Source of the DNA: Henriciella sp.
GTDB taxonomy: Bacteria; Pseudomonadota; Alphaproteobacteria; Caulobacterales; Hyphomonadaceae
Assembly: GCA_965277015.1 (NCBI GenBank)
Contig: OZ255705.1
Coordinates: 2,902,475-2,966,474 of the forward strand
Direction of reading: 5' to 3'
Length of the DNA: 64,000 nt
In this document: positions 13,243-35,113 of the stretch, piece by piece
How positions within the stretch are numbered: the first letter of the stretch is position 1
Layout: each line of letters starts with the position of its first letter
Translations under genes and position numbers: made by a program
Notes under the pieces: model-generated
Databases searched by the model: none
The model's input: only the letters and a program-made list of their open reading frames with translations
What the model was told of the DNA's origin: nothing

Positions 13243-13745
13243 TTTATCGAGGGTCGGCGGAATCTATAATTCTCGCATGCAGGATACTTCATGTCTCGTC
13301 GTCCCCATCCGCGATCATGCTTTTTTGAGTAGGCGGTTCTCAAGAAGCGTCTCGGCTAGCGCTTCCTTCAGGTCGCGGGCCTCACGCTTCAAGCCAGTGA
13401 CTTCGCCGGACGTTGCCTGGCGCTGGGTGTTACCAGACAGGCGCTTCTTGCCTGCCTCCATGAACTCCTTCGACCAGTTGTAATACAGGCTCTCAGCGAT
13501 CCCTTCACGGCGGCAAAGCTCAGAGATGGAGCTCTCTCCTCGCAAGCCGTCCAGTACAATGCGGATCTTTTCTTCGGTAGAGAACTTCCGCCGTGTCTTA
13601 CGTTTAATCTAGCCAATGTGTTTATCAGCCGATCCATTCGGCCCTGTTCTCGATCTCATCTTCAATCCTCTCAAGGATAACGATGAGCCAAAACACTCCC
13701 TTAGCAAAACTAACTAAACTGTCTTATAGGCCGTGACGGGGAACA
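13243..13745 (-). mobile_element. IS3-family remnant (left end, orfA with in-frame stop, first codons of orfB)
   Basis: Terminus TGTTCCCCGTCACGG at 13745; orfA RKTRRKFSTEEKIRIVLDGLRGESSISELCRREGIAESLYYNWSKEFMEAGKKRL interrupted by TAG near its start; A6G slippery tract at 13320-13326; orfB start MKYPACE then truncated. Confidence 0.88.
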
Positions 13746-13804
13746 GGCAAGCGACCCGTTTACCGCGTAGCTCCCGCGGAAAAATGATTTGACATACAAT
13801 TTGA

Positions 13805-14497
13805 TTACTTTCCCGTTTCCTTCGTCAAACGGCATTGTGCGTTTCCTCGCGTACCGAACGGCTTGGTCGCTCCGTAACCGCCCAGACAGGCTGCGATACG
13901 AATCGACGAGTCGCTTGGCATACTGTATTGATTTGTTTTCCTCTCACCGGCGTTCAGCGTGACGTTGTGAGTGTAATATTTTCCAGCCTCTGAGTTGCAT
14001 GCTTTCCTAGATTTCGATGATCCAGTTTGACACCAATAAACATGCACAATCGCCCCGCAATTGTTTATCATTTCATATTGAGGTTCGTTATCATAAGACA
14101 CGCGAACCTTATTGAGTGCAACGCAACCGTTCGCGTTAAGTCGCTCAATATGAGAATTAGTTTCACCGCTTCTAGCCCCGTTAGACTGATATGAGTTGCC
14201 CCTTTCCGGTGTTGAAGAGCGACCGAACTGTTGCTCGTTAACACCATAATTTGAGGAGGAGTTCTGAGAGGGGCTTCCGCCAGAATTTTGAATCGCAGCA
14301 TTCAAGTTGTATCTGGTCTGCGTTGCGTTGAAATCTTCGAAAGTGGCGTGGCAAGTGAACTGCAAGGGGTTTGTATTTGGGACCATTGCCATGTAGGGCT
14401 GAGACGCTGGACAAGTTTGAATTTGGGCGTGAGTTAATGGCGCCGCGATCGCAAAAATAGATGCTGTTGCCGCTGTAAATGAAATTTGTCGAAGCAT
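13805..14497 (-). CDS. Exported Cys-rich hypothetical protein
   Basis: Start MLRQISFTAATASIFAIAAPLTHA-Q with GGAGA RBS; 230 aa, Ser/Asn/Gly linker, 8 Cys. Confidence 0.75.
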   Translation of the reverse strand: MLRQISFTAATASIFAIAAPLTHAQIQTCPASQPYMAMVPNTNPLQFTCHATFEDFNATQTRYNLNAAIQNSGGSPSQNSSSNYGVNEQQFGRSSTPERGNSYQSNGARSGETNSHIERLNANGCVALNKVRVSYDNEPQYEMINNCGAIVHVYWCQTGSSKSRKACNSEAGKYYTHNVTLNAGERKTNQYSMPSDSSIRIAACLGGYGATKPFGTRGNAQCRLTKETGK

Positions 14498-14860
14498 TTT
14501 TGTCTCTCCATCTGTCCCGTCGTCAATTTTGTCATGTTGATATTGATGCTGCGTCCCCTGTTTTGGTGACGGCCGGTCAATTTTTCCTCTAATATGCAAA
14601 ATACTGCGTGCAAAAGGGGAATGAATATCTGAATGAAGGATCATTCGTATTTGAATGGCGACTCAAACAAACGATGTATTGGTTTGGCCTTGTGTTCAGC
14701 GGAAGGCCACTTTTCGGCAAGTAGCCAGGGGCCACGAACGCCAGCTCAGCCGTGGAAAACGGCGGAGAAAACTGATTCATGATCCCGCGTATCACTCGAA
14801 ATTGGACAATTGAAGCTTTAGTCCCCTTTGAACTCGCACGTAAGAGCAGACATTAGGGCC

Positions 14861-14985
14861 TGGCAACGTTGTGGCAACGTCGGAACGCTACCGAGCCTGT
14901 AAAATGGCAACGTTAAACTACGTTAGACTACGATCCGATACGTTAAAATCCTATAATTACAGAGGTTTTGCTTTTACCCTAAAGC
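14861..14985 (+). repeat. att arm block copy 2
   Basis: TGGCAACGT at 14861, 14872, 14905; 10-bp repeats from 14915; core TTGAC at 14986, same spacing as the 9767 block. Confidence 0.85.
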
Positions 14986-15036
14986 TTGACATTGCAGGGG
15001 TCACAAGTTCGAACCTTGTATCGACCACCATTTTCT
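14986..15036 (+). repeat. attR-type copy of the tRNA-Val 3' half
   Basis: 51/51 identical to 7534-7584. Confidence 0.95.
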
Positions 15037-18086: not shown

Positions 18087-18684
18087 CTCTTTGCAATATT
18101 TTTTTGTTGTTCTCGACGTTCAGTTTTTGCCTGATTTCGCGCAAATGGAAAGAAACGGTGGGCGGTGCGATGCGTAACCGATACCCGATTTCTTTGTTCG
18201 TCTCGCCACGGTCAATGAAGTGCAAGATCGCCATTTGCCTAGGTGAAAGGACAACGGATTGTGTTTCATTTATTGATATCAAGGTCTCGACGTAGCGGGA
18301 ATAATACTCAGCTCCATCAGTTGCTGATTCTAGAGCGGATAGGATCGATGCTGATACATCCCTCTTGCTAACTACCGCACGAGCGCCAAGCTTCATCGCT
18401 GTCTTGTAAGCCATCGCATCATCGCTGCCGCTTAAGACGACTACGGTCGCATCATGAACCGCCACCAGTTCCGCAAGGATAGATAAACCACTTAGATCGG
18501 GAAGCTCCAGATCGAGGAGTACGACATCGACCTGAACGCTTTCGACGAAGGGCAGCACCTCAGCGCCCGTTTTGAGAGCGCCCGCGACCTTGAAACGCCC
18601 AGCATTCAGAATGAGTCGCAACCCAGAATGCGTAAGATCGTGATCATCGACGATCAGAACGCTCTGTTGCCGTTGAGACCCCAT
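18064..18684 (-). CDS. NarL/FixJ-family response regulator (REC + LuxR HTH)
   Basis: LIVDDH, VLLDLELPDLSG, LSPRQMAIL..GETNKEIGYRLRIAPPTVSFHL. Confidence 0.93.
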   Translation of the reverse strand: MGSQRQQSVLIVDDHDLTHSGLRLILNAGRFKVAGALKTGAEVLPFVESVQVDVVLLDLELPDLSGLSILAELVAVHDATVVVLSGSDDAMAYKTAMKLGARAVVSKRDVSASILSALESATDGAEYYSRYVETLISINETQSVVLSPRQMAILHFIDRGETNKEIGYRLRIAPPTVSFHLREIRQKLNVENNKKILQRAREIGLI

Positions 18685-18835
18685 ATTATCCTCGACCTAA
18701 TCAAACGTCGGCGCTCATTTTAGGCGTCGCGCTGGGTATTGATAACCCCAAATTACTTTAGCGATGATTGGGCTGCTTAAACACGATAAACTCGGTTCTA
18801 GAACGAAGGAATACCAACTTAGATCGGAGATCATT

Positions 18836-19252
18836 ATGCTGAAGATATTGTCAGGAGCGCTTGTTGCTACGACGCTTTTTGCGGCTTTGGGCCAGCCCCT
18901 AGCAGATGCGCAAACAAGATCTGCAGAACAGGAATACAGGGATGTTACCCGATGCATCGCTATAGAAGCGGCGTTACTGAGAATGATGCATACTACCGAC
19001 CTCGACGAATACGCGATAGACACGCAGAAGCACAAAGTTGGATTGCTGCAAGGAATGTTGTTTGCTCTGGCAGAAAAACTAAATCTGCCTGAATCCACAA
19101 TGGCGGATGATCTATCTGAAGCGAGTATGGTGTTAAGCGCCGACGAGGCTCAAATCATGGAAACCATGAAGTTCTGCGCAACCCCAGAACGGGCCGCCGA
19201 AGTTGTGGCATTTTCATTTTCAAAGCAAAACTACATTCAACAATTTGAGTGA
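18836..19252 (+). CDS. Exported helical hypothetical protein
   Basis: GGAGA RBS then MLKILSGALVATTLFAALGQPLADA-Q; 138 aa with two Cys. Confidence 0.7.
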   Translation: MLKILSGALVATTLFAALGQPLADAQTRSAEQEYRDVTRCIAIEAALLRMMHTTDLDEYAIDTQKHKVGLLQGMLFALAEKLNLPESTMADDLSEASMVLSADEAQIMETMKFCATPERAAEVVAFSFSKQNYIQQFE

Positions 19253-19377
19253 CCCAGATTTGCCTTTTTCGAATGTCGGACTTTTGGCACTTGGATTCGT
19301 TTCGCGTTTCCTGGAGGAATGTGGCTCAGAGCTGCCGTGGGCTGCAATCCTGGAAATCATGATTTGAAGATGTACTC

Positions 19378-20097
19378 ATGAACCGTCACGATTTTCGAAG
19401 CGCGTTTGGCACAAATCGGCAGGTAACTCTGCCGGTTATTCACGTTCTAGACGAACCCCGAACGGCGGCAAATATCGAAATTTTGATGACCGTGGGTGCA
19501 CACGGATGTTTTCTCATCAATCACGATTTCCGCGCGGCTGAACTCGTTCCCATTGTTCGGACCATTCGCATGGAGTTTCCGTCTCTTTGGATCGGCGTCA
19601 ACTTACTGGGTGTCTCTGCTCCCGATGCATTTTATATGCTTGCAGATCTTCAACAAACCGGGTGCAGAGTCGATGGGTATTGGAGCGATAATGCCCAAAT
19701 CGATCACACTGTAATTGAGCAAGAACGAGCGACCGCCATCGACGAGGCGCGCCACCTCTCCGGTTGGAACGGCCTCTATTTCGGTGGGGTTGCATTCAAG
19801 TATCAGCGAACCGTTCCAATTGAGTCGCATCGCTCGGTTGCAAGGGTTGCGAGCCGACACATGGACATCATAACGACATCTGGGCCAGGCACAGGAGAAC
19901 CCGCATCTCCCGATAAGGTCATCGCATTTAGAGACGGCGCAGGCGACCATCCTATCGCGGTAGCGTCTGGCATCACACCAGAAAATGCCCGAGCATATCG
20001 CGAGGCTGATTGTTTTATCGTCGCAACGGGAATCAACAAGCCAGGCAACTTTTACGATATCGACGAGGACAGACTTAAAATGCTGCTTCGCACATGA
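19378..20097 (+). CDS. BtpA/SgcQ-family TIM-barrel protein
   Basis: LPVIHV, WIGVNLL, FGGVAFKYQ, TTSGPGTG, IAVASGITPEN, FIVATGI. Confidence 0.75.
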   Translation: MNRHDFRSAFGTNRQVTLPVIHVLDEPRTAANIEILMTVGAHGCFLINHDFRAAELVPIVRTIRMEFPSLWIGVNLLGVSAPDAFYMLADLQQTGCRVDGYWSDNAQIDHTVIEQERATAIDEARHLSGWNGLYFGGVAFKYQRTVPIESHRSVARVASRHMDIITTSGPGTGEPASPDKVIAFRDGAGDHPIAVASGITPENARAYREADCFIVATGINKPGNFYDIDEDRLKMLLRT

Positions 20098-20308
20098 TCC
20101 GACCTTGATGACTTCTTACAAAAAACGCTCGCTGACAAAATTTGTATGTTGGCTTTAGCTTACTCCGTCGTAATGTGCGGTGAGTTTAGGGAAATAAGGG
20201 GCGGAAACAACACTGACCGTTGTTTTAAGATCGGCGTTACTTCCTTTGAAAGCATAAGATGAATTCGGAGTTTGGACAACGAGTCCAACTCCAAACCGGA
20301 GATTGGGA

Positions 20309-21859
20309 ATGCAGACGATAGTAAAGATGAGCCTGTTGGTGATTGGCATTATTGCATCGGCGCACTTTGGCTTAGCACAGGAGGAGGACGTACAGGTTGC
20401 GTCGCCCGCGGAACAACACGCTTCAACGTCTTTTATGGTTTCGGTCGCGAATAAGGCGGATAACGCCTCTCGAACCGCCTCTGGTTTTATTGTCAATTCG
20501 CAGGGCTATGTTCTCACGTCCGCCTCGCTCATCGGTCGAGATGATGACGATACCTGGTTTGTTCAAGTTTCTGGAACCGTTGGCGTCATTCCGGCGACGG
20601 TTATATCGCTCAACGAAGATCTCGGGGTTGCGCTTCTCAAGACCAATGACGTTGAATTGCCGAATGTCGCAACATTCGCCTCTTTCGACCTGGAAAAGGG
20701 CGCGCCCGTCCAATCTTTGTCGATGGATGGCGACGGCACCGTCGCTGTCTCACCGGGTTCAATTGGCGATGCAGCCCTTCCAACCCGGAATAATCCACCG
20801 GTACAATATTTCGTTCATAACGCGCTTGTCACAGCAGAGGGTTATGGCGGAGCACTCTTGAATCGATGCGGCGAAGTCGTCGGGATAAACGTCACAAATC
20901 CGAACCTGTCGCGGAGAAGTGCGCGTCGTTTGCCGGCGCTCGATCAAAGTGTTTATTCACTAACGCTCGATCCGACGGCACAATTTTTGTTTGCGAGCGA
21001 CATCGATCTGAGTGTTGCACCTGGCCGATGCCTGAGTGCTGAAGAGGAAACAATTGAAGCCGTCTCAGTGACCAAGTCGACCGAAGAAGAGCTCGGTGAG
21101 GCGCAGCGCAAGCTCGACGAGCTTGAGGTGGCGCGACAGGAAGCCGAAGCCGAGCGGCAGGAACGACAAGACGAGGCTGACCGTCTTCGTGCAGAAGCCG
21201 ATCGATTGAAACAAGATAATGAAGCGTCCGAGGCGGAAATAGACGACGCAGATGCGGCAGCTGCAGAAGCCGAATCGCTCGCGGAACAAGCGTCCTTGAA
21301 GCTGAGCGACTTGCAGACCGAAATCGACACTCTTGATGGTCGCATAAAGGACCTCGAAAACCGACTCAAGGACGCGCAGCGGCGTCTGTATTATGTCCTG
21401 GCCGGCTCAGCAGCATTGCTAATTCTGCTTGGTCTGGGGCTCAGCATTATCATTCGCAACCGCGGATCAAAACTCGTCAACGTGTCGGCTGATTTGGATG
21501 CCGCGCATGAGAAGCTCGCGGAAACGTTTCCCGACGTTGAGTGCCGGGGCAAAGACGGCCAAAACGCGCCTCACGCTTTCCGGGTTTCTGGCGCTGCCCT
21601 GGTTCGTTCTCCGGAGGGATTGGTCATCGGTCGCCAGCCGGCGAGCGCCGATATCGTTCTAAATCATCCCGAGGTTTCTCGTGACCATGCGCGTGTGCAA
21701 ATCAAGGACGGCGAGCTCACGATCGAAGACCTCGGCTCTACCAATGGTACATTCGTCGATGGTGTGAAGCTCGAAAAGGGCAATCCGAGGCGATTGCAAG
21801 ACGGCAGTGAATTGAAGCTCGGTCAAATCACGCTCACTGCTAAATATATCGGAGCATAA
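20309..21859 (+). CDS. Membrane-anchored trypsin-like pseudoprotease with coiled-coil stalk and cytoplasmic FHA domain
   Basis: GGAGA RBS and ATG 20309; signal peptide; Trypsin_2-like fold with TSASLI / DLGVALLK / EGYGGAL in place of the catalytic motifs; about 100-aa coiled coil; TM; FHA (IGR, SRDH, STNGT). Confidence 0.85.
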   Translation: MQTIVKMSLLVIGIIASAHFGLAQEEDVQVASPAEQHASTSFMVSVANKADNASRTASGFIVNSQGYVLTSASLIGRDDDDTWFVQVSGTVGVIPATVISLNEDLGVALLKTNDVELPNVATFASFDLEKGAPVQSLSMDGDGTVAVSPGSIGDAALPTRNNPPVQYFVHNALVTAEGYGGALLNRCGEVVGINVTNPNLSRRSARRLPALDQSVYSLTLDPTAQFLFASDIDLSVAPGRCLSAEEETIEAVSVTKSTEEELGEAQRKLDELEVARQEAEAERQERQDEADRLRAEADRLKQDNEASEAEIDDADAAAAEAESLAEQASLKLSDLQTEIDTLDGRIKDLENRLKDAQRRLYYVLAGSAALLILLGLGLSIIIRNRGSKLVNVSADLDAAHEKLAETFPDVECRGKDGQNAPHAFRVSGAALVRSPEGLVIGRQPASADIVLNHPEVSRDHARVQIKDGELTIEDLGSTNGTFVDGVKLEKGNPRRLQDGSELKLGQITLTAKYIGA

Positions 21860-21863
21860 TGCG

Positions 21864-23336
21864 ATGTTTAAAAAGATCCTCATCTCAATCGCTATTGTCG
21901 CTCTTGCTGCAGGTCCTACAGCGCACGCTGACGCGGTCTCTTCGATCTCCAGCTGGTTCGGCGGGAGCCCAGAAGATCGGATCCCTCCCGATGACATTGA
22001 AAAATTGTCCAAGAGCGTCGTTAAAATCCTGACTTACACAGAGACGAGGGGCGAACTGAAAGGAGGCGGAACAGGCTCAGGAGTCATTCTGGACGATGAA
22101 GGCCACATCCTCACCAATTGGCACGTGGTCACCACGTCGATCGACCCAGTCGTTTCCGGCGTTGGTATCAAGCTCAACTACGAACTCGGTGAGGAGATCT
22201 GGGTCGCGACAGCAGATTCGTTGTCGCAGGTGCGTGCGGAACTGCTTTGGGTGGACGCTGAATTGGACTTGGCGCTGATCAAAGCCGTGCGGCCAATTGG
22301 TGAACCCGCCACCATTTCGACGCAGATGCCGGTTAGTGAGCGGAAAGTGACAGCGATGGGGTTTCCGGGCGCCGCCGAAGATTACAAAATTCGCCGTCAA
22401 ATTATCGAAGGCGGCCCGGACTCGTATGAGGAGTTGCGCGATGCACGTTTGAGCGAAATTGCTCTGACCCCGACGACTGGGATTTACGGCAATCTCCAAA
22501 ATCGACCATGGAACGAATTGGTCGCTAACAGCAAGCGCGTCAAAATTATTCAACACGACGCCGCTGTCAGTCACGGCAATAGTGGCGGACCATTATTCGA
22601 TGGTTGCGGCCGCGTGATTGGGATCAATACCCAGGTCACAATACGAGATTCGAACATTATTGCTGGTGTTTCCCTTGCATCGAGCATTGTAGAGGCGGTG
22701 CCCTATCTGCGTGATCAAGGGGTCAACTTTAATTTGCTAGACAATGTCTGCGAAACTTGGGTGCCGCCACAAGCCTTGGACACCTGGGATCTAATGTTGA
22801 TTTTGGCGACGCTGAGCTCGCTGGTCCTGGCAGCCGTCGCCCTCTCGCGGCGTCCTGTCAGACAAGCGATTTCAACCGGCGTGTCTCAATTAGTGAGTTC
22901 CGGACCAGCCAACTCTCGCCCATCCGAAACAGGCACCAACCAAAATCGCTATAAGCCTCGTCATAGTTCACCGCCAGGACCGCGGGCCAGCCAAGTCGGT
23001 CAAGTGCGAGTGATTTTGTCGGGAATCGCACAATCAAATGGTCACATTATCCGCATCGAGGTGGAGCCAAACGTGGCAAATAAGAGCGCCGATGGATTTG
23101 TCATCGGGCGGCAGCCGGAGCTTTGTCACCACGCGCTGGCTGACCCGATGGTTTCAAAACGGCAAGCTCGGTTTTTCTGGGACGCCTCGAAACTGATGCT
23201 GGAGGATTTAAACTCCACCAACCCAACCGTTGTGAACGGCGAAGAGTTGAAACCCTTTCAGCCACATTCCATCAAAACCGGGGACCGTGTTTTGATAGGT
23301 GATGTTGAACTTAAAGTGACCATGGCTCGAAACTAA
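21864..23336 (+). CDS. Membrane-anchored trypsin-like serine protease with cytoplasmic FHA domain
   Basis: Signal peptide; GTGSG, TNWHVV, LDLALIK, GNSGGPL intact triad; TM LMLILATLSSLVLAAVAL; FHA (IGR, SKRQ, STNPT). Confidence 0.9.
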   Translation: MFKKILISIAIVALAAGPTAHADAVSSISSWFGGSPEDRIPPDDIEKLSKSVVKILTYTETRGELKGGGTGSGVILDDEGHILTNWHVVTTSIDPVVSGVGIKLNYELGEEIWVATADSLSQVRAELLWVDAELDLALIKAVRPIGEPATISTQMPVSERKVTAMGFPGAAEDYKIRRQIIEGGPDSYEELRDARLSEIALTPTTGIYGNLQNRPWNELVANSKRVKIIQHDAAVSHGNSGGPLFDGCGRVIGINTQVTIRDSNIIAGVSLASSIVEAVPYLRDQGVNFNLLDNVCETWVPPQALDTWDLMLILATLSSLVLAAVALSRRPVRQAISTGVSQLVSSGPANSRPSETGTNQNRYKPRHSSPPGPRASQVGQVRVILSGIAQSNGHIIRIEVEPNVANKSADGFVIGRQPELCHHALADPMVSKRQARFFWDASKLMLEDLNSTNPTVVNGEELKPFQPHSIKTGDRVLIGDVELKVTMARN

Positions 23337-23371
23337 GCCCCCGTGAGACAAAACAAGCAGGATTTGCAGAT

Positions 23372-23626
23372 ATGAAACTCAAAAGACTCGGTCGCAGCTC
23401 ATTTAATGAGATCTCAGTTCAAGACCCGACGGTTTCTAGACGACACGCGGAAATCGTATTGCTGCCCGATGGCCGATTGTTCGTCACAGATTGTATGAGC
23501 ACGGGAGGCACCTTTGTTGAAATCAACGGCCGGTGGGAGCCGATTCGACAGGATTATGTGAACGCAGGTCAACAACTCAAATTTGGCGGCGTCGTCATGT
23601 CGACCGACCAACTGACACGCCGTTGA
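23372..23626 (+). CDS. Stand-alone FHA domain protein
   Basis: 84 aa; LGRS, VSRRHA, DCMSTGGTFV. Confidence 0.85.
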   Translation: MKLKRLGRSSFNEISVQDPTVSRRHAEIVLLPDGRLFVTDCMSTGGTFVEINGRWEPIRQDYVNAGQQLKFGGVVMSTDQLTRR

Positions 23627-23654
23627 TCAACGAATATTAGGAAAGGATACGAAA

Positions 23655-24341
23655 ATGCCAGTAGAGCATGATAAAGATGGAAACATCATCGAAACACCTG
23701 TCACAGACGTGCAGATCGGTAAAACCCAACGGACCCTTAGCGGGTCGACAGGGGCCGGAGAACCAGCAACCGAGGCCACGGATGTGTTTGGGCAAAAAAC
23801 CCAGGTTGTTGGCGCACCCCCGCTACAATCCTCCGAAAAGACAGCGCACGCTGACGAACCGTCGAAAACCGGAAGACGCGATTCTGCTCAAACCGGCGGA
23901 GCCTCGAAGCAACCAGCAACTGCATCACGCACTTCGCTCGTGGGAGGCCTTCCCGCAGATGAAGACGGCTCTGCTGGGCTGGCACAAAATGATGATCCAG
24001 TTGTTGGCTGGTTGGTCGTTGAGAACGGACCTGGTAGAGGGTCGGCTGTGCAAATCGGGACGGGCATGAACGCTGTCGGGCGCGGCTCGGGCCAACGCAT
24101 CAGTTTGAACTTTGGCGATAATGCCATTTCATCCGAGAAGCATTTTTTCGTGTCATACGACCCACGATCTAGCGAGTTCGCGGTCCACCGAGGTGACGGT
24201 ACGAACCTGACTTATTTGAATCAGCAGCCAATTTATGGGTCTGAGTCCCTTCAAAACATGGCGCAAATCGAGGTTGGCCAAACGACTTTGCGCTTTGTTG
24301 CGCTGTGCGGTGAAGAGTTTAGCTGGGGAGCGCAAGACTAA
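23655..24341 (+). CDS. FHA domain protein with Thr-rich disordered N-terminus
   Basis: C-terminal PVVGWLVV..GPGRG, VGRG, ISSEKH, GTNLTYLN; first about 110 aa low-complexity and Thr-rich. Confidence 0.88.
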   Translation: MPVEHDKDGNIIETPVTDVQIGKTQRTLSGSTGAGEPATEATDVFGQKTQVVGAPPLQSSEKTAHADEPSKTGRRDSAQTGGASKQPATASRTSLVGGLPADEDGSAGLAQNDDPVVGWLVVENGPGRGSAVQIGTGMNAVGRGSGQRISLNFGDNAISSEKHFFVSYDPRSSEFAVHRGDGTNLTYLNQQPIYGSESLQNMAQIEVGQTTLRFVALCGEEFSWGAQD

Positions 24342-24345
24342 GCGT

Positions 24346-25683
24346 ATGAAAGACTCCGAAACACCCCAATTGTTCCTGAAAGACCGCGTCGCCGGCGACC
24401 AGTGGATTGGTCAACGCGAACGCCAGGAAGATAATTTTCTTGTTATCGACCTGCGCGACGATGGTCATAACGAAGACGATGCTGTTCTTTGCATCTTAGC
24501 TGACGGCATGGGCGGTGCAGTAGGGGGATCGATCGCAAGCAAGATTGCGGTCGATACGTTTGCTGATGCTTATTTAAGCGCACCAAAGTCTCAATCGCCA
24601 GGCGAGCGATTGTCTGCTGCCTTAAGTGAGGTTACGTCCGCACTGCAGCAAAGAATCTCCGTCGAGCCCAGCCTGAAAGGCATGGGGTGTACATTGGTTG
24701 CCGCATTGATTGAACAGGATTCAGTGCGCTGGATCAGCGTTGGCGACAGCCCATTTTGGCTCCATCGCAACAATAGTTTGACGCAGCTGAACAAAGATCA
24801 TTCAATGAAACCGGTGCTTGATGCCCTGGTCGAAAAAGGTGAACTGACCAGAGACGAGGCGGATCGGGACGGTCGGAGAAATGCGCTCCGCTCGGCCATT
24901 GATGGAAATGAACCCCAACTGATTGATCTACAAGATAGTGGATATCAGCTGCAGCCGGGCGACGTCTTGATTTTGGCCAGCGATGGCTTGGAGACGCTTA
25001 AGGTCAAGCAGATAGAGAAAATCCTCGATCAACATCGCTATTCCTCTGTGATCGAGCGCGTTGAGAAGCTGCTTTTGGCAACGTCTAAGCAGAACGACCC
25101 GTACCAAGATAACACAACGGTCATTTTGATGGACGCTGTGATGTCTGAAAAAGGTATGAGAGCGATTGCCAATCCGACGCGCCGAGGTGACGGAATTTCC
25201 GTGCCGGCTTCGACTGTTCGATTGAGGGAAGCAACAAAGGCTCCAAGCGAGTCCCGGAAACCAATGCAATCGCCGTCCGGTAAATCGAGTCTGATTGTGT
25301 TCGTGCTTGCGAGTCTTCTATTCATCGCCTTCTTATTGCTGTTATACATAAGGTTTGGCGTCGGGAATGAAACGCAAGATACTTCGCCCGATCCCCAAAT
25401 ACATCCGAATGATACCCAGTCGCCTGAAAGCGACCTTGATAGCTCGAAACTGGGTCGCTCTCCGTTCGTTGAAGAAGAAGCTGGTGATGAAACAAGCGAC
25501 GCGGAAGCCAGAGACGAAAGCTTCGTTGAAGATCCGACTGAACCGCCTGAAAACCCAGATGCACCAGACCCAAATATAGAGGTCATTCCGGACAATGAAA
25601 GCGGCGGTGAAGGGCAAGGCGCCAGGGCCGACGGCATCGAGGAAGGTACAGAGTTAGACTCTGCAAGGGGCACTGATCAATGA
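24346..25683 (+). CDS. PP2C-family Ser/Thr phosphatase with TM segment and acidic periplasmic tail
   Basis: RERQED, ADGMGG, GCT, VGDS, DHS, SDGL, DNTT motifs; TM LIVFVLASLLFIAFLLLLY; ATG 24346 lies 4 nt after the upstream stop. Confidence 0.93.
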   Translation: MKDSETPQLFLKDRVAGDQWIGQRERQEDNFLVIDLRDDGHNEDDAVLCILADGMGGAVGGSIASKIAVDTFADAYLSAPKSQSPGERLSAALSEVTSALQQRISVEPSLKGMGCTLVAALIEQDSVRWISVGDSPFWLHRNNSLTQLNKDHSMKPVLDALVEKGELTRDEADRDGRRNALRSAIDGNEPQLIDLQDSGYQLQPGDVLILASDGLETLKVKQIEKILDQHRYSSVIERVEKLLLATSKQNDPYQDNTTVILMDAVMSEKGMRAIANPTRRGDGISVPASTVRLREATKAPSESRKPMQSPSGKSSLIVFVLASLLFIAFLLLLYIRFGVGNETQDTSPDPQIHPNDTQSPESDLDSSKLGRSPFVEEEAGDETSDAEARDESFVEDPTEPPENPDAPDPNIEVIPDNESGGEGQGARADGIEEGTELDSARGTDQ

Positions 25684-27653
25684 GTTACTCCAACGCTTTA
25701 AACAAAGGACAGGTCCTTTTTGACGACTATGAAATCGTTCGCGTGCTTGGCGAGGGCGGCTTCGGGATTACCTATCTCGCCTATCAAACCAACCTCAAAA
25801 AAGCGGTTGCGATAAAAGAGTACTTTCCTGTTGAATGGGCCGTGCGAACGCAGGATATGCGGGTCGAGTGCATGAGGGAAAATAAACAGGAGCTGTTCCA
25901 GTGGGGCTTGAATAGTTTCCTGCAAGAAGCGCAAACAATTGCCCTGTTTCAACATGCCAATATTGTGCGGCCAATCGATTATAAGAGCGCCAATGGCACG
26001 GCATATCTCATCATGGAATATGTCGAGGGAAAAACGCTCGAGCAAATTATCAAAGAACGCGGAACACTTTCGGCGGAGGAAGTTCGCTTCTTAATGGAGA
26101 AATTGCTCGCGGGCTTGGACCATGCGCACGAATTGAGCGTGCTTCACCGTGATATCAAACCGGCAAATATTGTTATTCGCGCCTCTGACGGTGAACCCGT
26201 ATTGATTGATTTCGGCGCGGCGCGTGAAACGGTCCAGAAGCGGTCGGCGCCAATCACCGCAATCGTCACGGCGCCTTATGCGCCTCATGAACAGTATTCA
26301 ACTCAAATGCAGAAACAGGGGGCGTGGACGGACCTGTATGCTGTATCGACAGTTGGATACGAATGCTTGACCGGTTCGCGTCCGCCCGACGGACCCGGTC
26401 GGGTCGAAGAAGATACGCACAATTATCTTGATGAAAGCAGGCACGACGACGCCGATCTGTGTCGTGCGATCAATCAGGGAATGCACGTACGCACCGTTGA
26501 CCGACCTACTGATGTTGAAACCTGGCTGGCCTATTCCGGAACCAAATTTATTCACCTAAAGCCTGGGATTATCAGCGGCGAAAACGGTAAAAGGGATGAC
26601 TCGAACTCGCCTCAAGATACCAAAAAACGCGGGAAGGATTCTGGCGGGTTTCGGACTGTACCCAGACCGCCAACACCCTTGGGAGGTAACCGCCAAGGGC
26701 AACCCCAGCAGCGACGCAACACGTTGGTGATGATCGGGGGGGGCATCGCGGCGATCGCTTTCGGCGTCTATTATGTTAATACCATTGGCGGCACCGAACT
26801 CGATCCTGATCGAGGCTCCGTCGATCGAAGCGCTGCCAATCAGGCGCCGAGCGGCGTAGATCGATGGCGGGATAGCGTTGACATTGAGGCGCTTGAAAAT
26901 GACATACCGATGCTGGTCCGAATCCCGGCAGGAAGTTTCGAAATTGGATCAACGCCTGATGAACTTGGGCATGACGATGATGAATCGCCCAAGACTCGCA
27001 TCACGATTGATTATGAGTATGCACTCAGCGAAACCGAAATTACGGTCGGACAATGGCAAGCGTGCACTGCAAATGGCTTGTGCGAAAAAATCGGAAACCT
27101 GCGCATCCCTGCCACGAATGAGTTGGTCAATGACCCGTCTAGACCAAGCGATCCAGTACGCGGCATTCGGCCGACTGATATACAAGACTATCTACAATTT
27201 TTAACGGAACGAACCGGGCATACGTATCGTCTGCCAACCGAAGCCGAGTGGACTTTTGCCGCCCAGGCGGGCTCCGACAATGTCTACCCTTGGGGGAACG
27301 ACGCACGCCTCGATTTGGCGAATTGTACGGATTGCATACCCGGGCGTACGCAGGCGTCTTTGATGCGCGTCGGATCATTTCCGGCGAATGCCTATGGCCT
27401 GTATGACATGCAAGGAAATGTCTGGGAGATCACTGCCGATTGCTGGACAAGAAATTTCAGTTCCATTCCGACGACGGGTGAAGCAACAAGAACTGAAGAT
27501 TGTCATACGCATCCAGTGAAAGGAGGGGCATATTCAAGCGGTATCGCTCAATTAAGAGTTGCGGCGAGGCAAAAATTCCAATTCGTCGAGAACGGCGAAG
27601 AAAAAGGCAGTTTCATCATTGGCTTTAGAGTGCTTCGAGAGATCCGCTCATAG
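25680..27653 (+). CDS. Hanks-type Ser/Thr kinase fused via TM to a periplasmic FGE-sulfatase (SUMF1/TagR-like) domain
   Basis: LGEGGFG, VAIKE, HRDIKPAN, DFG, APHE; TM; IPAGSFEIGS, YRLPTEAEW, YPWG, GLYDMQGNVWE, KGGAY, GFRV. Confidence 0.94.
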   Translation: MSYSNALNKGQVLFDDYEIVRVLGEGGFGITYLAYQTNLKKAVAIKEYFPVEWAVRTQDMRVECMRENKQELFQWGLNSFLQEAQTIALFQHANIVRPIDYKSANGTAYLIMEYVEGKTLEQIIKERGTLSAEEVRFLMEKLLAGLDHAHELSVLHRDIKPANIVIRASDGEPVLIDFGAARETVQKRSAPITAIVTAPYAPHEQYSTQMQKQGAWTDLYAVSTVGYECLTGSRPPDGPGRVEEDTHNYLDESRHDDADLCRAINQGMHVRTVDRPTDVETWLAYSGTKFIHLKPGIISGENGKRDDSNSPQDTKKRGKDSGGFRTVPRPPTPLGGNRQGQPQQRRNTLVMIGGGIAAIAFGVYYVNTIGGTELDPDRGSVDRSAANQAPSGVDRWRDSVDIEALENDIPMLVRIPAGSFEIGSTPDELGHDDDESPKTRITIDYEYALSETEITVGQWQACTANGLCEKIGNLRIPATNELVNDPSRPSDPVRGIRPTDIQDYLQFLTERTGHTYRLPTEAEWTFAAQAGSDNVYPWGNDARLDLANCTDCIPGRTQASLMRVGSFPANAYGLYDMQGNVWEITADCWTRNFSSIPTTGEATRTEDCHTHPVKGGAYSSGIAQLRVAARQKFQFVENGEEKGSFIIGFRVLREIRS

Positions 27654-27697
27654 CCATACCAACACTTCAAATAATCGACCAAACCGAGGGACAAACA

Positions 27698-28552
27698 ATG
27701 AGAAAAATTATCGCCAGTCTAACACTGGGAGTGTCAGTTTTCGCGACCGGATGCGCAACCACAATGGAGCAGTTGCAAGAATTTGAACTGCCAACGCAAT
27801 TTCCGAGCGTGTTCACTGATTCCTTTAACAAGATGTTCGATCAACAGAATCAAGCTGCCCTGTCGGCGAGAAAACAAGAGCTCGCCAGTTCTGGCATATA
27901 TGCAGATACGACCAAGGTGAAGTTGTCGAATTCGTATGCATCTTCCAGTCAAGCATACACCAAAACCACAGTTCAAGGTGTGGCGTTGGGCGCCGTGATT
28001 GGCGGCGTCGGGTGCAAATACCTGGCATCCACAAATGATACGCAGACCGGACTTTGTGCGGCGGCTGGTGGATTGGCAGGATTGGCGTTTGCCAACCTGG
28101 TGAATTCTGAAGCAAGAGAGCTCACCGACGACCGCGCTAAACTGGAAGCCGAACTTCAGCAAGCTGAGAACAATCGCGCCGCGGCTCAGGTTCTCGTCAA
28201 TGAAACGCAAGACAACATCGTATACTTGGAATCTGTCGTGGCTGGTTACAAGAACGACCTAGCGCAAAACAAGATTTCCCAACAGCAATATGAAGCGAAT
28301 ATCATCGAGGCGCGGCAGATTGCAATTGCGATGACGGCAGACTTAGACAAAGTTAAAAGCGATGTCGAAGCGCAGAAAAAACTATTTGCGACGGTTCAGA
28401 AGAATAGCGCCAAGGGTGAAGAACCCAAGAATCAAGATCTCATTCCGGCTATCGAGAAATCGATCAATGCGGATGACGAGTTCCTAAATACTGAGGTGAA
28501 ACTTGCCACTCAACGCGTTGTCGACTTCGAGAAAGATCTAGGCGCAGCGTAG
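27698..28552 (+). CDS. Lipoprotein with glycine zipper and coiled coil (TagQ-like architecture)
   Basis: Lipobox FATG-C; GVALGAVIGGVG..AAGGLAG glycine zipper; helical C-terminal half. Confidence 0.8.
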   Translation: MRKIIASLTLGVSVFATGCATTMEQLQEFELPTQFPSVFTDSFNKMFDQQNQAALSARKQELASSGIYADTTKVKLSNSYASSSQAYTKTTVQGVALGAVIGGVGCKYLASTNDTQTGLCAAAGGLAGLAFANLVNSEARELTDDRAKLEAELQQAENNRAAAQVLVNETQDNIVYLESVVAGYKNDLAQNKISQQQYEANIIEARQIAIAMTADLDKVKSDVEAQKKLFATVQKNSAKGEEPKNQDLIPAIEKSINADDEFLNTEVKLATQRVVDFEKDLGAA

Positions 28553-28561
28553 GAGCAGATT

Positions 28562-29086
28562 ATGGATCTCAGGAGATTAACAGCTATTTGCGTATCCGGT
28601 CTGGCGGCAACAGCATGTGCAACAACGACAGGCATCACCGACCCGCAAGAGTGTATTCAGAAGTATGGAATCGCAGCCAAGGTTTGTTTGGATGAGGTCG
28701 CGGCTCGGAATAAAGAGATTGAAGGTGAAATTCAGGAAATCGAGGTCGATACTTCTGAGACTCAATCGCAATTGGTGGTGCTGAAAGCTCGCCAGACAGC
28801 GCTTCAGAATGAATATGCGTCTTTGCGGTCGCAGCTTGATACTGAGGCGCAGGATTTGGCGGAAATGCGGTCAACGCTTACAAAGTTGCGGACAAATAGC
28901 CGACTGACCGAAGTGCAGTACCAAACGCTTCTCAACGAGCTGGAGTCGGTGAATTCGCGAATTCTCGTCTTTCAGGCGAAGCCAGTTCCAAACATGCCGA
29001 CTCAAGGCGATGTCAAAGAGATAGATGAATTCCTAGGCACTGAAGTTGCGATGATTAAGACGACGATTTCGAACCTCAGTTTCTAG
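28562..29086 (+). CDS. Coiled-coil lipoprotein
   Basis: Lipobox AATA-C; long heptad-rich helix; 174 aa. Confidence 0.8.
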   Translation: MDLRRLTAICVSGLAATACATTTGITDPQECIQKYGIAAKVCLDEVAARNKEIEGEIQEIEVDTSETQSQLVVLKARQTALQNEYASLRSQLDTEAQDLAEMRSTLTKLRTNSRLTEVQYQTLLNELESVNSRILVFQAKPVPNMPTQGDVKEIDEFLGTEVAMIKTTISNLSF

Positions 29087-29123
29087 CGTGCAACTCAACG
29101 TAATCGGAATTCACACACGATCG

Positions 29124-29158
29124 CAGCGACCGATCTCATAAAAAAAGGTCGGTCGCTG
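29124..29158. terminator. Stem-loop between convergent genes
   Basis: cagcgaccga ... tcggtcgctg 10-bp inverted repeat after the 28562 gene and 5 nt from the stop of the opposing gene. Confidence 0.6.
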
Positions 29159-29163
29159 TTCGT

Positions 29164-29826
29164 TCAAGTCAGAACAATTTCCAAGGTAGATTTTAGTGGG
29201 CCCAGGCTCGTAATCTGAAGCGTGTATGAGGCCACGCCGAAGCTGTTCCAGGTGCATGATTGCTTGAACTGTGGCCGCTCGGAATTACACAGAATTTCAC
29301 CGCGATCGTCGAGCAACGTCATATGATATCGTGCATTCTCATACCGCGACGAAATTACGATACTGAATGTGCCAGCTGATTTCACACTCAGCTTCAACGT
29401 GTCCGTCTGCCCTGAAGGCATCAGTCGGCGGCGAACGGTGCGTGCCCCTTGAACATGCCTGACAACTGTGCCGGCAAGACTGCGGCTGAACGCGCTATAG
29501 TCGAGATCTGGGAGCGTGCGGGAGACTTCCTCGATCATATCGGCAGATGAGACTGGGGCACTAGGTTGTTGGCCTGGGTCAGCAATGGTGCCTCGTCCGG
29601 CCAGGTTGGCGGTCGCCTGGTTCTCAAATTCTTCCTGCAGCTTGATGATGCGGAGGATGGCGTCGAGATCGCTTCGAGCCAGCGCAGTATCAAATTCTGA
29701 TCGATCGATGCCTTGTGCAGAGGCGGGAGTGACAGACCAGACGCCTATGCCAGCCAGTATCAATCCCAAGATAAACATAAAGGGCTTATAGTCGAAGCCA
29801 GTAATATTCCCCATTTGCGTCCCCAT
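29164..29826 (-). CDS. Exported protein with C-terminal PPC-like beta-sandwich
   Basis: Signal ..LAGIGVWSVTPASA-Q; helical N-domain; C-terminal LLDDRGEILC..CTW..YTLQITSLG resembles the PPC-like family with a GDGDTDLDL motif, here diverged. Confidence 0.65.
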   Translation of the reverse strand: MGTQMGNITGFDYKPFMFILGLILAGIGVWSVTPASAQGIDRSEFDTALARSDLDAILRIIKLQEEFENQATANLAGRGTIADPGQQPSAPVSSADMIEEVSRTLPDLDYSAFSRSLAGTVVRHVQGARTVRRRLMPSGQTDTLKLSVKSAGTFSIVISSRYENARYHMTLLDDRGEILCNSERPQFKQSCTWNSFGVASYTLQITSLGPLKSTLEIVLT

Positions 29827-29918: not shown

Positions 29919-30845
29919 GTGGCAAGTAAAGTCCTTCTCGTCGATGACGAGCCTGATCAGATCGCCCGGCTCGGAGAAGAGATGGCTGCGTTAGGGCTCC
30001 ACGTCGATAGTGCTGGCACCCTCGAGGACGCACGCACTTACCTTGCTTTACATACATACGATCTGATCATTCTGGATCGTGAACTTAAAACCGCATCGGG
30101 CGCCGATGACGGGTTGATATTATGCGCCGAAATCCGAGCGTCCGGTATTTCGGCAAGGATCATTTTCTACACAAATTTGGTTAGTCCGACGGATCACCGG
30201 CTCGGATGGTCGGCAGGGGCAGATGATTATATGGAAAAAGGCTGGCCCCTTGAGGTGACATTAGCGCGTTGTGAAGCACATTTGGCGCGACCAATTTTTC
30301 CTGCACAGGAAAAGCTGTCGGCAAAAGTATACGATCACCCAGGGATTGCCGAAGGACGTCGACTCGTCGTGGATGAGACGTCATTGGTGGTCTCGCGCAG
30401 GGAAGATTTTGAACTGGCCAAACATGGTGGCTTGATCAAACCAAAACTTGATCACGACCGTCGCGAGCATTACAAGAAAGTGAAAATGACAGATCTTGAT
30501 CTGGCGGTTTTCTTTCACTTGTATCGACAATCAGATAGTTGGGTGACGGAGCAAGATTTGTTGCGTGACGTCTGGGGCTATTCCCAAGCGCGCATTGATT
30601 CCATGATGGAAAATCCTGATCTGAACTCCGGTCTGGTGCACACCACGATTTCGCGAATGCGGCGTAAAATCGATACGCGACTGGAGCGCAAGAAGGATCG
30701 AAGTGTTAGCCTTCCGAGTGCGCGACCCTGGGCCTTTATCTCGACGAGCAATGACGAAGGGCAAACCTCGGTCAGTTATAAGTTTAATCGCGCAGATTCC
30801 ATTGTGAGTGCGATCGAGAGTCCAGATTTCCTGGATACGCTATAG
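29919..30845 (+). CDS. OmpR-family response regulator with an enlarged winged-helix domain
   Basis: LLVDDE, IILD, GADDYMEK; C-terminal LLRDVWGY..VHTTISRMRRKI. Confidence 0.88.
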   Translation: MASKVLLVDDEPDQIARLGEEMAALGLHVDSAGTLEDARTYLALHTYDLIILDRELKTASGADDGLILCAEIRASGISARIIFYTNLVSPTDHRLGWSAGADDYMEKGWPLEVTLARCEAHLARPIFPAQEKLSAKVYDHPGIAEGRRLVVDETSLVVSRREDFELAKHGGLIKPKLDHDRREHYKKVKMTDLDLAVFFHLYRQSDSWVTEQDLLRDVWGYSQARIDSMMENPDLNSGLVHTTISRMRRKIDTRLERKKDRSVSLPSARPWAFISTSNDEGQTSVSYKFNRADSIVSAIESPDFLDTL

Positions 30846-32360
30846 ATGCTTGAGCGCTTAAGGCTGGGTATTAGAGGGTGGTCATTTACTTGGCGGCTCA
30901 CCCTGATTTGTGTCATCCCCTTAGCGCTCGTTGCGATTTTGCTCAGCCATTTGGTCAATGGTGAAATTCGAGAACTCTCCCTTGATCTTGAAGCTCAGCT
31001 CTTGGAGCAGGAAGCAATTTGGCTAGGGCAGGAAATTCGAGCCATGGGCGCCATGCGCGATGAAATGCTTGTTTCGGGTCAGGAGTTCCCCTGTCTGGAT
31101 ACGGCGAGCTTATCGACCAGCGAGGAAAGCGCAAATCGAACGGGATTCAGCTTTGAAGAGCCGGTTTGTGCGGGGAACGAGCTAAGTGTGATCCCGATTC
31201 TGAACGAGACCTGTTTCTATTCCGCGTGTGAGGCTCAGATAAACCTGGGTCGGAGAGACACAAAGGTGCTCGCACGGATTTTGCCGATGGGGCAGTCTGG
31301 ATGCGGGGTGGAAGACGCAACAGGGCTTCCCGGTCCGAGTGGCTGCCTGATTGTATGGCGCGCGCTTGACCAGCATGAAGACCGCCTCGCAGGTCCCTTC
31401 TTTTGGCCAATAATTGCCCTGGGAGCGGGCGCGTTTGCAACCGGGTTGATTGTTTTTTTGCTCTCCAGGCGGTTCGGCAATCGCATTCAACGCATCAATT
31501 CGGCATTTGAATCATTTGCTAGCGGGAACCGTGAGGTGCGCGCCCCTACGTTCCCATATGATGAAGATCTGAACTCGCTCGCGGAGTCTACGAACGTGGC
31601 CTTGAGGCAAATTGAGCAAGATATGATCTCAGCGCGAAGAGTCAGCGCGTCCTTGTCTCACCAATTGCTGGCGCCAATAAAGCGGATGCAAACGCGCGTT
31701 TCAGACACGGTCATGGAGATGGATGCCTCCAAAGATCCACAGACGCATTATACGGACGCTCGATTGAAAACCTGGCGAAAGGAGCTGGAAGGTGTCAGCC
31801 GAGATGCAGACGGCGTGTTTAGCATGGGGCAATCCTTGCTCGCCCTCCTAAGTGCTAGTGGCGACACACAAGCGGCAAAGCAAAAAGACATCGTGGATTT
31901 GGACGAAGTCTGCATGTTGTGCGCTGCCCGATTCCGGAAACGAGCCGCTGAGAGTGGCATTGAGATCCGAGTCGACGCGGCGGGTATTGAAGTCGTCTCT
32001 GTGTACCATTCGATTGATCAGATCGTTTCGAATTTGATCGATAATGCCATCAAGTATGGTCCTGCTAATGCCAGAATATCGATTACTTGCGACGAGACCG
32101 AAACCGAAGCTTGGCTCGCTGTGCAGGATGAGGGCAATGGCCCGCCGGAAGATGTCTTGCGAGACGTATTCGACGACCACGTACTGGTGTCAGCAACAAA
32201 TTCCGCACGCGAAGGCCGCGGCGGTCATGGAATCGGATTGCTGACGGTCAGGCAATTGGCAGACAATTCCAATATAAGACTTGAACAGAGGCAGTATCAT
32301 CCTGGTTGGGCTGTTGTGCTTTCTTGGCCGGTCGGGTCAGGCCCCCGCTCCAAACCCTGA
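30846..32360 (+). CDS. HAMP-domain sensor histidine kinase
   Basis: Two TMs around a Cys-rich periplasmic domain; HAMP; H-box SHQLLAP; NLIDNAIKY, VQDEGNG, GHGIGL. Confidence 0.9.
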   Translation: MLERLRLGIRGWSFTWRLTLICVIPLALVAILLSHLVNGEIRELSLDLEAQLLEQEAIWLGQEIRAMGAMRDEMLVSGQEFPCLDTASLSTSEESANRTGFSFEEPVCAGNELSVIPILNETCFYSACEAQINLGRRDTKVLARILPMGQSGCGVEDATGLPGPSGCLIVWRALDQHEDRLAGPFFWPIIALGAGAFATGLIVFLLSRRFGNRIQRINSAFESFASGNREVRAPTFPYDEDLNSLAESTNVALRQIEQDMISARRVSASLSHQLLAPIKRMQTRVSDTVMEMDASKDPQTHYTDARLKTWRKELEGVSRDADGVFSMGQSLLALLSASGDTQAAKQKDIVDLDEVCMLCAARFRKRAAESGIEIRVDAAGIEVVSVYHSIDQIVSNLIDNAIKYGPANARISITCDETETEAWLAVQDEGNGPPEDVLRDVFDDHVLVSATNSAREGRGGHGIGLLTVRQLADNSNIRLEQRQYHPGWAVVLSWPVGSGPRSKP

Positions 32361-32480: not shown

Positions 32481-33065
32481 ATGTTTAGGATTGCTCTTCT
32501 TTTCGTTGCGGCGCTTGTACTCACAGCCACTGCCAGCGCGCAGTCAAAAAATAGCCTTTGTAATAACACTGCTTACAAAATGAATTTTGTGTTCAACGTT
32601 CTGAGCAACCAACGGCTTACAACATATGGGTGGTACAATGTGGACCCGGGGGATTGCCAAGACTGGAGCGTTGGCGTCGGTGAAAAAGCCTGGGTGACAG
32701 CATCTATTTATGGGCGACGCGATCTGTACTGGGACAATGGTGCGGACATTAAGCTGTGTGTTGGAAACACCAGTGATGCGTTTGAGGTCGATTATCCCGC
32801 CAATGGGTCTTATTGCCCGAGCAAAACGACGGTACGACCAGCATATCTCTTGAAAGGCGGATCCCGAGGCTTCACCTGGAGCGGTGGCTTGCCAGCGCGA
32901 CCGAGCTCAAAAGACGACGACGCTGCGTTGGGGGCTGCCCTATTGTTAGGTGGGATTGCGTTATGGGCATGGGGCGCTGATGCCGCCGATAAAGCCGATC
33001 AAGAAGCCTGCATGAGACGTTGTACAAAATCACGAGCGCGATGCGTGCGGCTTTGTACGCAGTAA
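32481..33065 (+). CDS. Exported DUF1036-like protein with hydrophobic segment and Cys-rich tail
   Basis: Signal peptide; LCNNT..GWYNVDPGDC matches the DUF1036 pattern; tail C-x3-C-x6-C-x3-C. Confidence 0.7.
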   Translation: MFRIALLFVAALVLTATASAQSKNSLCNNTAYKMNFVFNVLSNQRLTTYGWYNVDPGDCQDWSVGVGEKAWVTASIYGRRDLYWDNGADIKLCVGNTSDAFEVDYPANGSYCPSKTTVRPAYLLKGGSRGFTWSGGLPARPSSKDDDAALGAALLLGGIALWAWGADAADKADQEACMRRCTKSRARCVRLCTQ

Positions 33066-35061: not shown

Positions 35062-35113
35062 TTGACATTACAGGGGTCTCAAGTTCGAACCTTGTATCGG
35101 CCACCATTTTCTC
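35062..35113 (+). repeat. Degenerate attR-type copy of the tRNA-Val 3' half
   Basis: 49/52 identical to 7534-7585. Confidence 0.9.

Follow-up and report, generated by a model that had tools for sequence, protein, structure and literature searches.

Proteolysis in the bacterial envelope is coupled to envelope-stress regulons by the DegS-RseA-sigmaE and DegP-CpxP-CpxAR circuits. The periplasm has no ATP, and it is a long-standing problem how proteolysis there is governed from the cytoplasm. A different envelope-sensing route is found in the H1 type VI secretion system (H1-T6SS), where TagQ and TagR dimerise the kinase PpkA and gate its activity (PMC13713981). A pairing of TolQ-like proteins with transpore-helix-vWA proteins has also been published, with no mention of kinases or FHA domains (PMC12204202), and a survey from 2008 lists one FHA-FHA-trypsin architecture only (PMC2605481). 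Here we analyse an operon of eight genes in a stretch of 64,000 nucleotides of the Henriciella sp. genome (assembly GCA_965277015.1, contig OZ255705.1, positions 2,902,475 to 2,966,474 of the forward strand; hereafter the window, to which all coordinates refer unless another locus is named). Its products join a Hanks-type kinase, a PP2C phosphatase and FHA domains to a pair of trypsin-like envelope proteins. The reading that we put forward, about which our confidence is evenly balanced, is that the operon and its conserved neighbours form a mobile, self-contained trans-envelope threonine-phosphorylation module, a rare motor-less variant of a family combining FHA, PP2C, Hanks kinase and FHA-tailed protease genes.

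The operon consists of eight co-directional open reading frames between 20309 and 29086, with gaps of 4, 35, 28, 4, -4, 44 and 9 nt. On re-check, the positions and spacings in the preliminary description of this DNA matched exactly, and every domain call made there was confirmed by Pfam. The genes are as follows.

20309..21859, + strand: pPro, with a signal peptide, a dead Trypsin_2 domain, a periplasmic coiled coil of ~120 aa, a transmembrane (TM) helix and a cytoplasmic FHA domain (Pfam, hydropathy)
21864..23336, + strand: Pro, with a signal peptide, an HtrA/DegS-like Trypsin_2/Trypsin domain, a TM helix, a disordered linker and a cytoplasmic FHA domain (Pfam, hydropathy)
23372..23626, + strand: FHA84, a bare FHA domain of 84 aa (Pfam FHA, 5e-13)
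23655..24341, + strand: FHA228, 228 aa, with a disordered, Thr-bearing N-terminus and a weak C-terminal FHA domain (Pfam, alignment)
24346..25683, + strand: PP2C, with a PP2C_2 domain, a TM helix and an acidic periplasmic tail (Pfam, hydropathy)
25680..27653, + strand: STK-FGE, with a Pkinase domain, a juxtamembrane linker, a TM helix and a periplasmic FGE-sulfatase domain (Pfam)
27698..28552, + strand: Lpp284, an exported helical glycine-zipper protein of 284 aa, with a lipobox at this locus and no Pfam family
28562..29086, + strand: Lpp174, a helical coiled-coil lipoprotein with a lipobox and no Pfam family

A hydropathy scan placed a single TM helix in each of pPro (residues 366-384), Pro (310-328), PP2C (317-335) and the kinase STK-FGE (348-366), and found signal peptides or lipoboxes at the N-termini of pPro, Pro, Lpp284 and Lpp174.

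The genome is complete, a single contig of 3.40 Mb. Throughout it, the FHA matches over the Pfam cut-off all fall in the operon, and the Pkinase matches over the cut-off number two, STK-FGE and a second kinase, STK441, both on the genomic island that carries the operon. No second PP2C gene was found in the genome by tblastn. By these searches the island is the sole threonine-phosphorylation set of its host, and is self-contained. As judged from residues and topology, a closed phospho-circuit appears almost unavoidable, since the kinase and the phosphatase have no other FHA partners, and the FHA proteins no other kinase, in the cell.

The preliminary description had treated the kinase, PP2C and FHA proteins as a signalling set, and their functional residues were indeed found to be kept on alignment. 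STK-FGE retains K46 of the VAIK motif, D158 of HRD and D177 of DFG; its activation loop carries T193 and T197, and the cytoplasmic linker ahead of the TM helix contains two invariant threonines, T314 and T326, both in TxxR motifs. The ectodomain, of PvdO/TagR-like FGE fold, is disulfide-rich with six invariant cysteines, and its closest structure is PvdO (5hha, E 4e-32). At the catalytic, copper-binding Cys pair of FGE it shows GGAYSSGIAQLR; since both catalytic cysteines are absent, the ectodomain is a binding module. Comparison with the nearest relative of the locus (L110) shows purifying selection on the FGE domain, the ratio of non-synonymous to synonymous substitution rates (dN/dS) being 0.11, and a test for retroelement-type hypervariation of this sensor was negative at that value.

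In FHA228, T93 is invariant and lies within [KR]T[RSQ][LI][VH]G, and a second motif reads QKTQ[LV]AG. Its FHA domain keeps the canonical Gly-Arg, Ser-x-x-His and Asn residues that bind phosphothreonine (pThr), as do all four FHA domains their pThr-binding residues. FHA228 is probably a kinase substrate or adaptor, and the conserved Thr motifs in the kinase and in FHA228 could be docking sites for FHA domains. The FHA228 gene invariably adjoins the PP2C gene in the loci compared. Its family is large, with 2184 representatives at E<=1e-30 among 1.84 billion in a profile search, and it is carried by 8 of 400 genomes of the class. For PP2C, dN/dS against L110 is 0.05 in the catalytic domain and 0.44 in the periplasmic tail. 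The tail is acidic and disordered and shares 70% identity with that of L110, the catalytic domain 97%. The second kinase, STK441, has the VAIK and DFG motifs and an HGD in place of HRD. Its N-terminal domain of ~230 aa matched no Pfam family.

The envelope-facing half of the operon is a live and a dead protease. In an alignment of four orthologous pairs, the triad of Pro (H87, D135, S240) is invariant, and that of pPro is lost in 4/4, with His replaced by Ser or Ala, Asp by Gly and Ser by Tyr or Phe. The assignment of pPro as a pseudoprotease was therefore borne out, all three catalytic residues being gone in every orthologue. The Cys248/Cys296 pair is kept in both proteins, which fits a periplasmic site, and pPro alone has an insert of ~120 residues of coiled coil running from the protease fold to the TM helix. 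Its dN/dS against L110 is 0.09, like that of Pro (0.08), the dead copy thus being held under the same constraint as the live one; for this reason we consider pPro a maintained pseudoenzyme and not a decaying gene. By Pfam, Pro has no PDZ domain; the TM helix and FHA domain stand in its place, and against the NCBIfam HtrA models it scored 61-65 bits, where the cut-offs are 416-470. Clusters of pPro number ~13 among 5.8 billion proteins. A scan of the genome collection with the Pro alignment settled on motifs common to HtrA proteases, and apart from one useful locus (L013) its matches were ordinary HtrA genes.

The same eight genes were found in the same order at five further loci, as L001/L002, L003/L004, L005 and L093 (35-45% protein identity) and as the near relative L110 (91.5%), in agreement with the gene-order conservation that the first annotation had put up for checking. 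The extent given there proved too short. The eight-gene order is conserved, but the unit runs past 29086: wherever the contig continues 3' of the eight genes, tblastn finds a reverse-strand gene of ~220 aa, a response regulator (RR) of ~306 aa and a histidine kinase (HK) of ~500 aa. These and the next two genes in the window are listed below.

29164..29826, - strand: hyp220, exported, with a helical N-terminal half and a PPC/collagen-binding-like beta-sandwich (model, Foldseek)
29919..30845, + strand: RR308, a receiver domain with an OmpR-type winged helix (tblastn across loci)
30846..32360, + strand: HK504, a histidine kinase with two TM helices and a periplasmic domain of ~150 aa (hydropathy, tblastn)
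32481..33065, + strand: an exported DUF1036 protein, retained beside the unit in the nearest relative L110
33229..34554, + strand: STK441, a soluble non-RD Hanks kinase with homologues near the unit in L003 and L110

Eleven genes stand in common order in L001/L002, L005, L093 and L110, and eight on the truncated L003. hyp220 is kept in L001, L005, L093 and L110, and the RR/HK pair with a divergent hyp220 accompanies 5/5 complete loci of the motor-less window type. Within the unit, conservation is highest for RR308 (52-57% identity). A two-component pair and a periplasmic PPC-domain protein are therefore part of the unit, and neither had a place in the earlier model. In L110, counterparts of the DUF1036 protein and of STK441 are retained as well; the STK441 homologue in L003 (34% identity) lies just upstream of the unit. 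Nucleotide similarity to L110 begins at 20097, in the intergenic region 5' of pPro, where we place the left boundary of the module. All twelve genes compared with L110 have dN/dS values of 0.03-0.18, indicating purifying selection, with 0.03 for the DUF1036 protein.

These observations bear on a simpler reading, in which the genes are independent neighbours: Pro and pPro would be quality-control HtrA paralogues with incidental FHA tails, and the two-component system would be separate. HtrA-like proteases are indeed ubiquitous, and tblastn found two other HtrA-like genes in this genome. However, both content and order are retained at ~35-45% protein identity across five loci on different mobile backgrounds, the dead protease is under purifying selection, and the genome has no other FHA protein, kinase or PP2C for these proteins to work with. 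The trypsin-TM-FHA architecture is, moreover, widespread, and in each neighbourhood looked at, its distant members lie beside genes for a kinase, a PP2C and FHA proteins. We regard independence as very improbable.

Two elements mark the ends of the operon.

20133..20145, + strand: the palindrome TGACAAAATTTGT, 5' of the operon (motif conserved across loci)
29117..29163, no strand assigned: a hairpin with a 14-bp core between convergent genes (folding against shuffles)

A sequence of the form TGACAAA[N0-1]TTTGT is present 5' of pPro in five loci, including L110, L005, L093 and L003, although their proteins are only 35-45% identical. The window has a single copy against an expectation of 0 and the whole genome 2 sites, and TGACAAAATTTGT is a candidate operator or -35 region. 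At the other end, a 3' stem-loop had been claimed, and the hairpin supports it with a folding energy of -30.9 kcal/mol (z = -5.8; 0/200 shuffles equally stable). It is probably a bidirectional terminator for the convergent genes. Because it has no T-run it is not listed in a simple terminator scan; the promoter/terminator scan gave background level only and missed it.

The remaining envelope proteins are less familiar. Lpp284 has an invariant glycine zipper with two invariant cysteines, and its C-terminal half is modelled as three long helices (predicted local distance difference test, pLDDT, 85-91). Both Lpp284 and Lpp174 had been called lipoproteins; both carry a lipobox here, but that of Lpp284 is missing in 2/5 orthologous lineages, L001 and L003 having a plain signal peptide, so that the call holds for this locus and not for all lineages. 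Homologues of Lpp284 form 3 clusters only among 5.8 billion proteins. Pfam, PDB and fold searches gave it no informative relatives beyond a helical bundle, and nothing exceeded an NCBIfam cut-off. Homology to TagQ was not detected in the Pfam, NCBIfam, PDB and cluster searches, which did not include a direct comparison with the TagQ sequence. In Lpp174, the lipobox Cys19 is invariant, followed by a Cys31/Cys42 pair and a coiled coil. A profile-profile comparison of the two (hhalign) returned a probability of 82% and an E of 1e-5; the idea of hidden paralogy is plausible on this score, and Lpp174 is probably a paralogue of Lpp284. The model of hyp220, which is transcribed divergently from RR308, has a mean pLDDT of 79.5, with 5sv5 as its best Foldseek match (E 3e-7).

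The module lies on a 20-kb island bounded by two copies of the 3' 51 nt of the tRNA-Val gene at 7504-7578.

14986..15036, + strand: left tRNA-Val 3' repeat of island 2, 100% identical
35062..35112, + strand: right tRNA-Val 3' repeat of island 2, 94% identical

In two congeners (G502, G506) the tRNA is followed directly by a homologue of window 35282-36640, an empty site, and 7584-35112 is therefore inserted DNA. It is made up of tandem islands at the tRNA-Val gene, 7585-15036 and 15037-35112, each ending in a repeat of the tRNA 3' terminus. By its repeats and insertions, the tRNA-Val gene is an integration hot spot. Among other congeners, G507 has at this tRNA a different 17-kb insert that is likewise bounded, and G514 and G096 carry other inserts there. 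Island 2 showed no integrase, and the sole recombinase gene in island 1 is that of a small serine resolvase (8294-8839). On the left of island 2 (15837-20097) lie genes for a 7TMR-DISM histidine kinase, a LuxR-type RR, a membrane protein of 162 aa and a BtpA-like protein, which look like separate cargo since L110 does not keep them with the module. The distribution of the module is sporadic: with Pro as marker, it was found in 0/13 other sampled species of the genus and 2/~87 other genomes of the family. Flanks of the sister loci contain a serine recombinase and DUF2924, a phage integrase and ArdC, or transposase fragments. Judged from these flanks and this distribution, the module is mobile cargo, horizontally acquired.

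Orthologues of FHA84, the FHA228-PP2C pair, the Hanks kinase and the trypsin-TM-FHA proteins were found by tblastn, at 27-50% identity, at L006, L007, L094, L095, L091 and L096-L103. In the motor-bearing layout, a block of FHA84, a MotA/ExbB-like gene, FHA228 and PP2C is accompanied by pPro/Pro and a vWA-like protein of 269-316 aa, and the ectodomains of the kinases vary, being FGE, ankyrin, Lcl_C or Sel1. FHA84 orthologues are present in both cluster types. No homologue of the MotA/ExbB/TolQ-like and vWA-like proteins was found in the Henriciella genome (E<=1e-4) or in the five sister loci. As neither motor protein has a homologue in the genome, we interpret the window type as a rare motor-less derivative; and as both locus and genome are without motor genes, the phospho-relay and its proteases can occur where the predicted motor is missing. 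A third layout, also motor-less, is found at L100 (6658-17728, G351:C2), with pPro, Pro, a kinase of 990 aa, FHA84, an FHA protein of 467 aa and PP2C. Its kinase adds two PG_binding_1 domains to the FGE fold. Directly downstream and co-directional are genes for an EF-hand protein, an extracytoplasmic function (ECF) sigma factor, a 110-aa protein and a CpxP/Spy-family protein. The motor-bearing locus L095 (1-17773) has three paralogous kinase-FGE genes (899, 863 and 918 aa) with one FHA/PP2C/protease core, and also a PIN/Phd toxin-antitoxin pair.

Taken together, these features suggest the following scheme. A cue in the envelope or periplasm would be read by the FGE ectodomain with Lpp284 and Lpp174 and would activate the kinase, in parallel with TagQ/TagR and PpkA. 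Substrates of the kinase would be its own juxtamembrane linker and FHA228. FHA84 and the cytoplasmic tails of Pro and pPro would then dock, through their FHA domains, on the pThr sites, so that the live/dead pair is assembled or positioned, and PP2C would reset the phosphorylated state. The protease may in turn cut a periplasmic partner, the top candidates being hyp220 or the sensor domain of HK504. Such cleavage, by removal of an inhibitor or by trimming of the HK504 sensor, could lead to RR308-dependent transcription, compare DegP/CpxP/CpxAR and DegS/RseA. We favour a link to transcription because the RR/HK pair and the divergent periplasmic gene are invariable, and because L100 has ECF sigma and CpxP-like genes. 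More tentatively, and at low confidence, the module may be viewed as a plug-in mobile envelope sentinel: cytoplasmic pThr would control a periplasmic protease, the FHA-docked pair would remodel the envelope or free the two-component system, and the motor would be an exchangeable accessory.

Several points weigh against this scheme. The tie from protease to two-component system is inferred from gene order and analogy, and the region 5' of the operon shares no 8-mer or operator with the hyp220/RR308 intergenic region. The FHA tails could serve only as tethers between proteases and kinase. Placement of Lpp284 at the outer membrane is uncertain, lipidation not being seen in all lineages. Defence genes beside motor-bearing relatives point to a role in conflict and not in envelope homeostasis.

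This last point deserves a fuller account. In the main rival reading, an anti-phage or conflict system, defensive or abortive, the module would use its periplasmic lectin-like FGE domain to sense an invader-derived molecule or an envelope breach, and the phospho-relay would unleash the protease on receptors, on proteins of the invader or on the envelope of the cell itself. Residence on a tRNA island with a sporadic distribution is in keeping with this. In PADLOC annotation, three motor-bearing relatives with long flanks adjoin defence genes: HEC-01A and AbiEi/AbiEii at L094 (660-5274), a type II restriction enzyme and methylase at L006 (14109-17195), and a Ppl/mad3-like ATPase with a Schlafen/AlbA-type protein at L007 (3319-7299). 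Toxin-antitoxin pairs flank L094 and L095, the latter with its three sensor paralogues, and FGE/FGS domains have been proposed as invader sensors (PMC7159879, PMC8195603). Hanks kinases occur in known defence systems, but the PADLOC matches of the kinase here go no further than its generic domain; indeed PADLOC-DB 2.0 gave no full-length match to a defence model, only generic kinase-domain, protease-domain and coiled-coil matches. The sample of neighbourhoods is also small, and loci of the window type are flanked by mobile-element and not defence genes. Furthermore, the FGE domain is purifying and not diversifying, the unit has no retroelement or effector of nuclease/NADase type, and its conserved partners, a two-component system or in L100 an ECF sigma factor, are typical of stress signalling. 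We therefore consider a defence role unlikely, though not negligibly so.

A second alternative takes the operon to be an orphaned or redeployed TagQR-PpkA-PppA-Fha module that lost its T6SS and gained a protease output. The layout is analogous, with a lipoprotein next to an FGE-fold sensor, a membrane Hanks kinase, PP2C reset and FHA proteins as pThr readers (PMC13713981), and the FHA domains give weak matches to the TagH model (NCBIfam TIGR03354). These matches are nevertheless far below the threshold, ranging from 37 to 54 bits (best 53.7) against a cut-off of 120.25. No gene for a TagS/TagT-type ABC transporter is found in the unit, nor a vWA ectodomain on the kinase, and for the lipoproteins no named relative was detectable. 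Kinase and FGE fold form one protein here, whereas TagR is separate in the H1-T6SS; and the FHA proteins number four, two of them membrane proteases, unlike in the H1-T6SS. Independence from T6SS, as first claimed, was confirmed: TssC (PF05943) and Hcp (PF05638) have no match in the complete genome, 9 of the 11 carrier genomes are without TssC (in the remaining two it lies on a contig other than that of the cluster), and none of the carrier-locus flanks examined holds a T6SS gene. Five components, on the other hand, have clear orthologues in the TolQ-like/vWA clusters. The proposal that the TagQRST-PpkA-PppA-Fha1 pathway had been reused is thus not upheld, neither homology nor descent having been found and the NCBIfam matches all lying far below cut-off. 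We hold it improbable. By analogy, the H1-T6SS may still indicate how the sensing end works, although membership fails on the features tested.

The preliminary description knew of no characterised system with such a composition, and our full-text literature searches likewise found no published description of the gene set. The core proteins belong to a family of at least 2184 sequence clusters for which no experimental study was found in the literature. Should the sentinel reading be true, the phospho-relay and tethered proteases would be the functional core of this whole family of >2000 clusters, and a protease whose sole regulatory domain is a cytoplasmic pThr reader, together with its dead twin, would be one answer to the question of control across the inner membrane. 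The host also offers a clean test bed free of crosstalk, since Hanks kinases, PP2C and FHA proteins occur in it nowhere outside the island, and close relatives that lack the island provide a natural empty-site control.

How the locus stands next to known systems can be summarised as follows. It resembles the DegS and DegP circuits in placing an HtrA-family envelope protease beside an envelope-stress transcription system, and cpxP-cpxRA in the small periplasmic gene divergent from an RR/HK pair. Unlike DegS and DegP, the protease has no PDZ domain and carries a cytoplasmic FHA domain, and hyp220, with its PPC-like beta-sandwich, is not a CpxP homologue by Foldseek. An active HtrA-like protease with a degenerate but conserved pseudoprotease recalls the magnetosome pair MamE/MamO (compare PMC4794232). 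FHA tails and phospho-signalling are not known from MamE and MamO. Pro and pPro scored 45-46 bits against the NCBIfam models of MamE and MamO respectively, where the cut-off is 800, and the locus has no magnetosome context.

The phospho-relay has parallels in the mycobacterial FhaA-FhaB(FipA)-PstP-PknA/PknB set and in GarA/OdhI, where an FHA protein has an N-terminal acceptor Thr, as FHA228 probably does. The mycobacterial set also shares the membrane PP2C with an extracytoplasmic tail, the receptor Hanks kinase and juxtamembrane pThr docking sites, which are candidate sites here, and FHA228 gives weak, sub-threshold NCBIfam matches to FhaB/FipA and OdhI. The present locus differs in having no rodA/pbpA linkage, in its Gram-negative periplasm and in its protease partners. 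With the TolQ-like/vWA clusters it has in common FHA84, the FHA228-PP2C pair, a Hanks kinase and the live/dead trypsin-TM-FHA proteins; the slot of the motor is here taken by Lpp284/Lpp174, hyp220 and the RR/HK pair, and this motor-less version helps to separate the roles of the phospho-relay and proteases from that of the TolQ-like motor.

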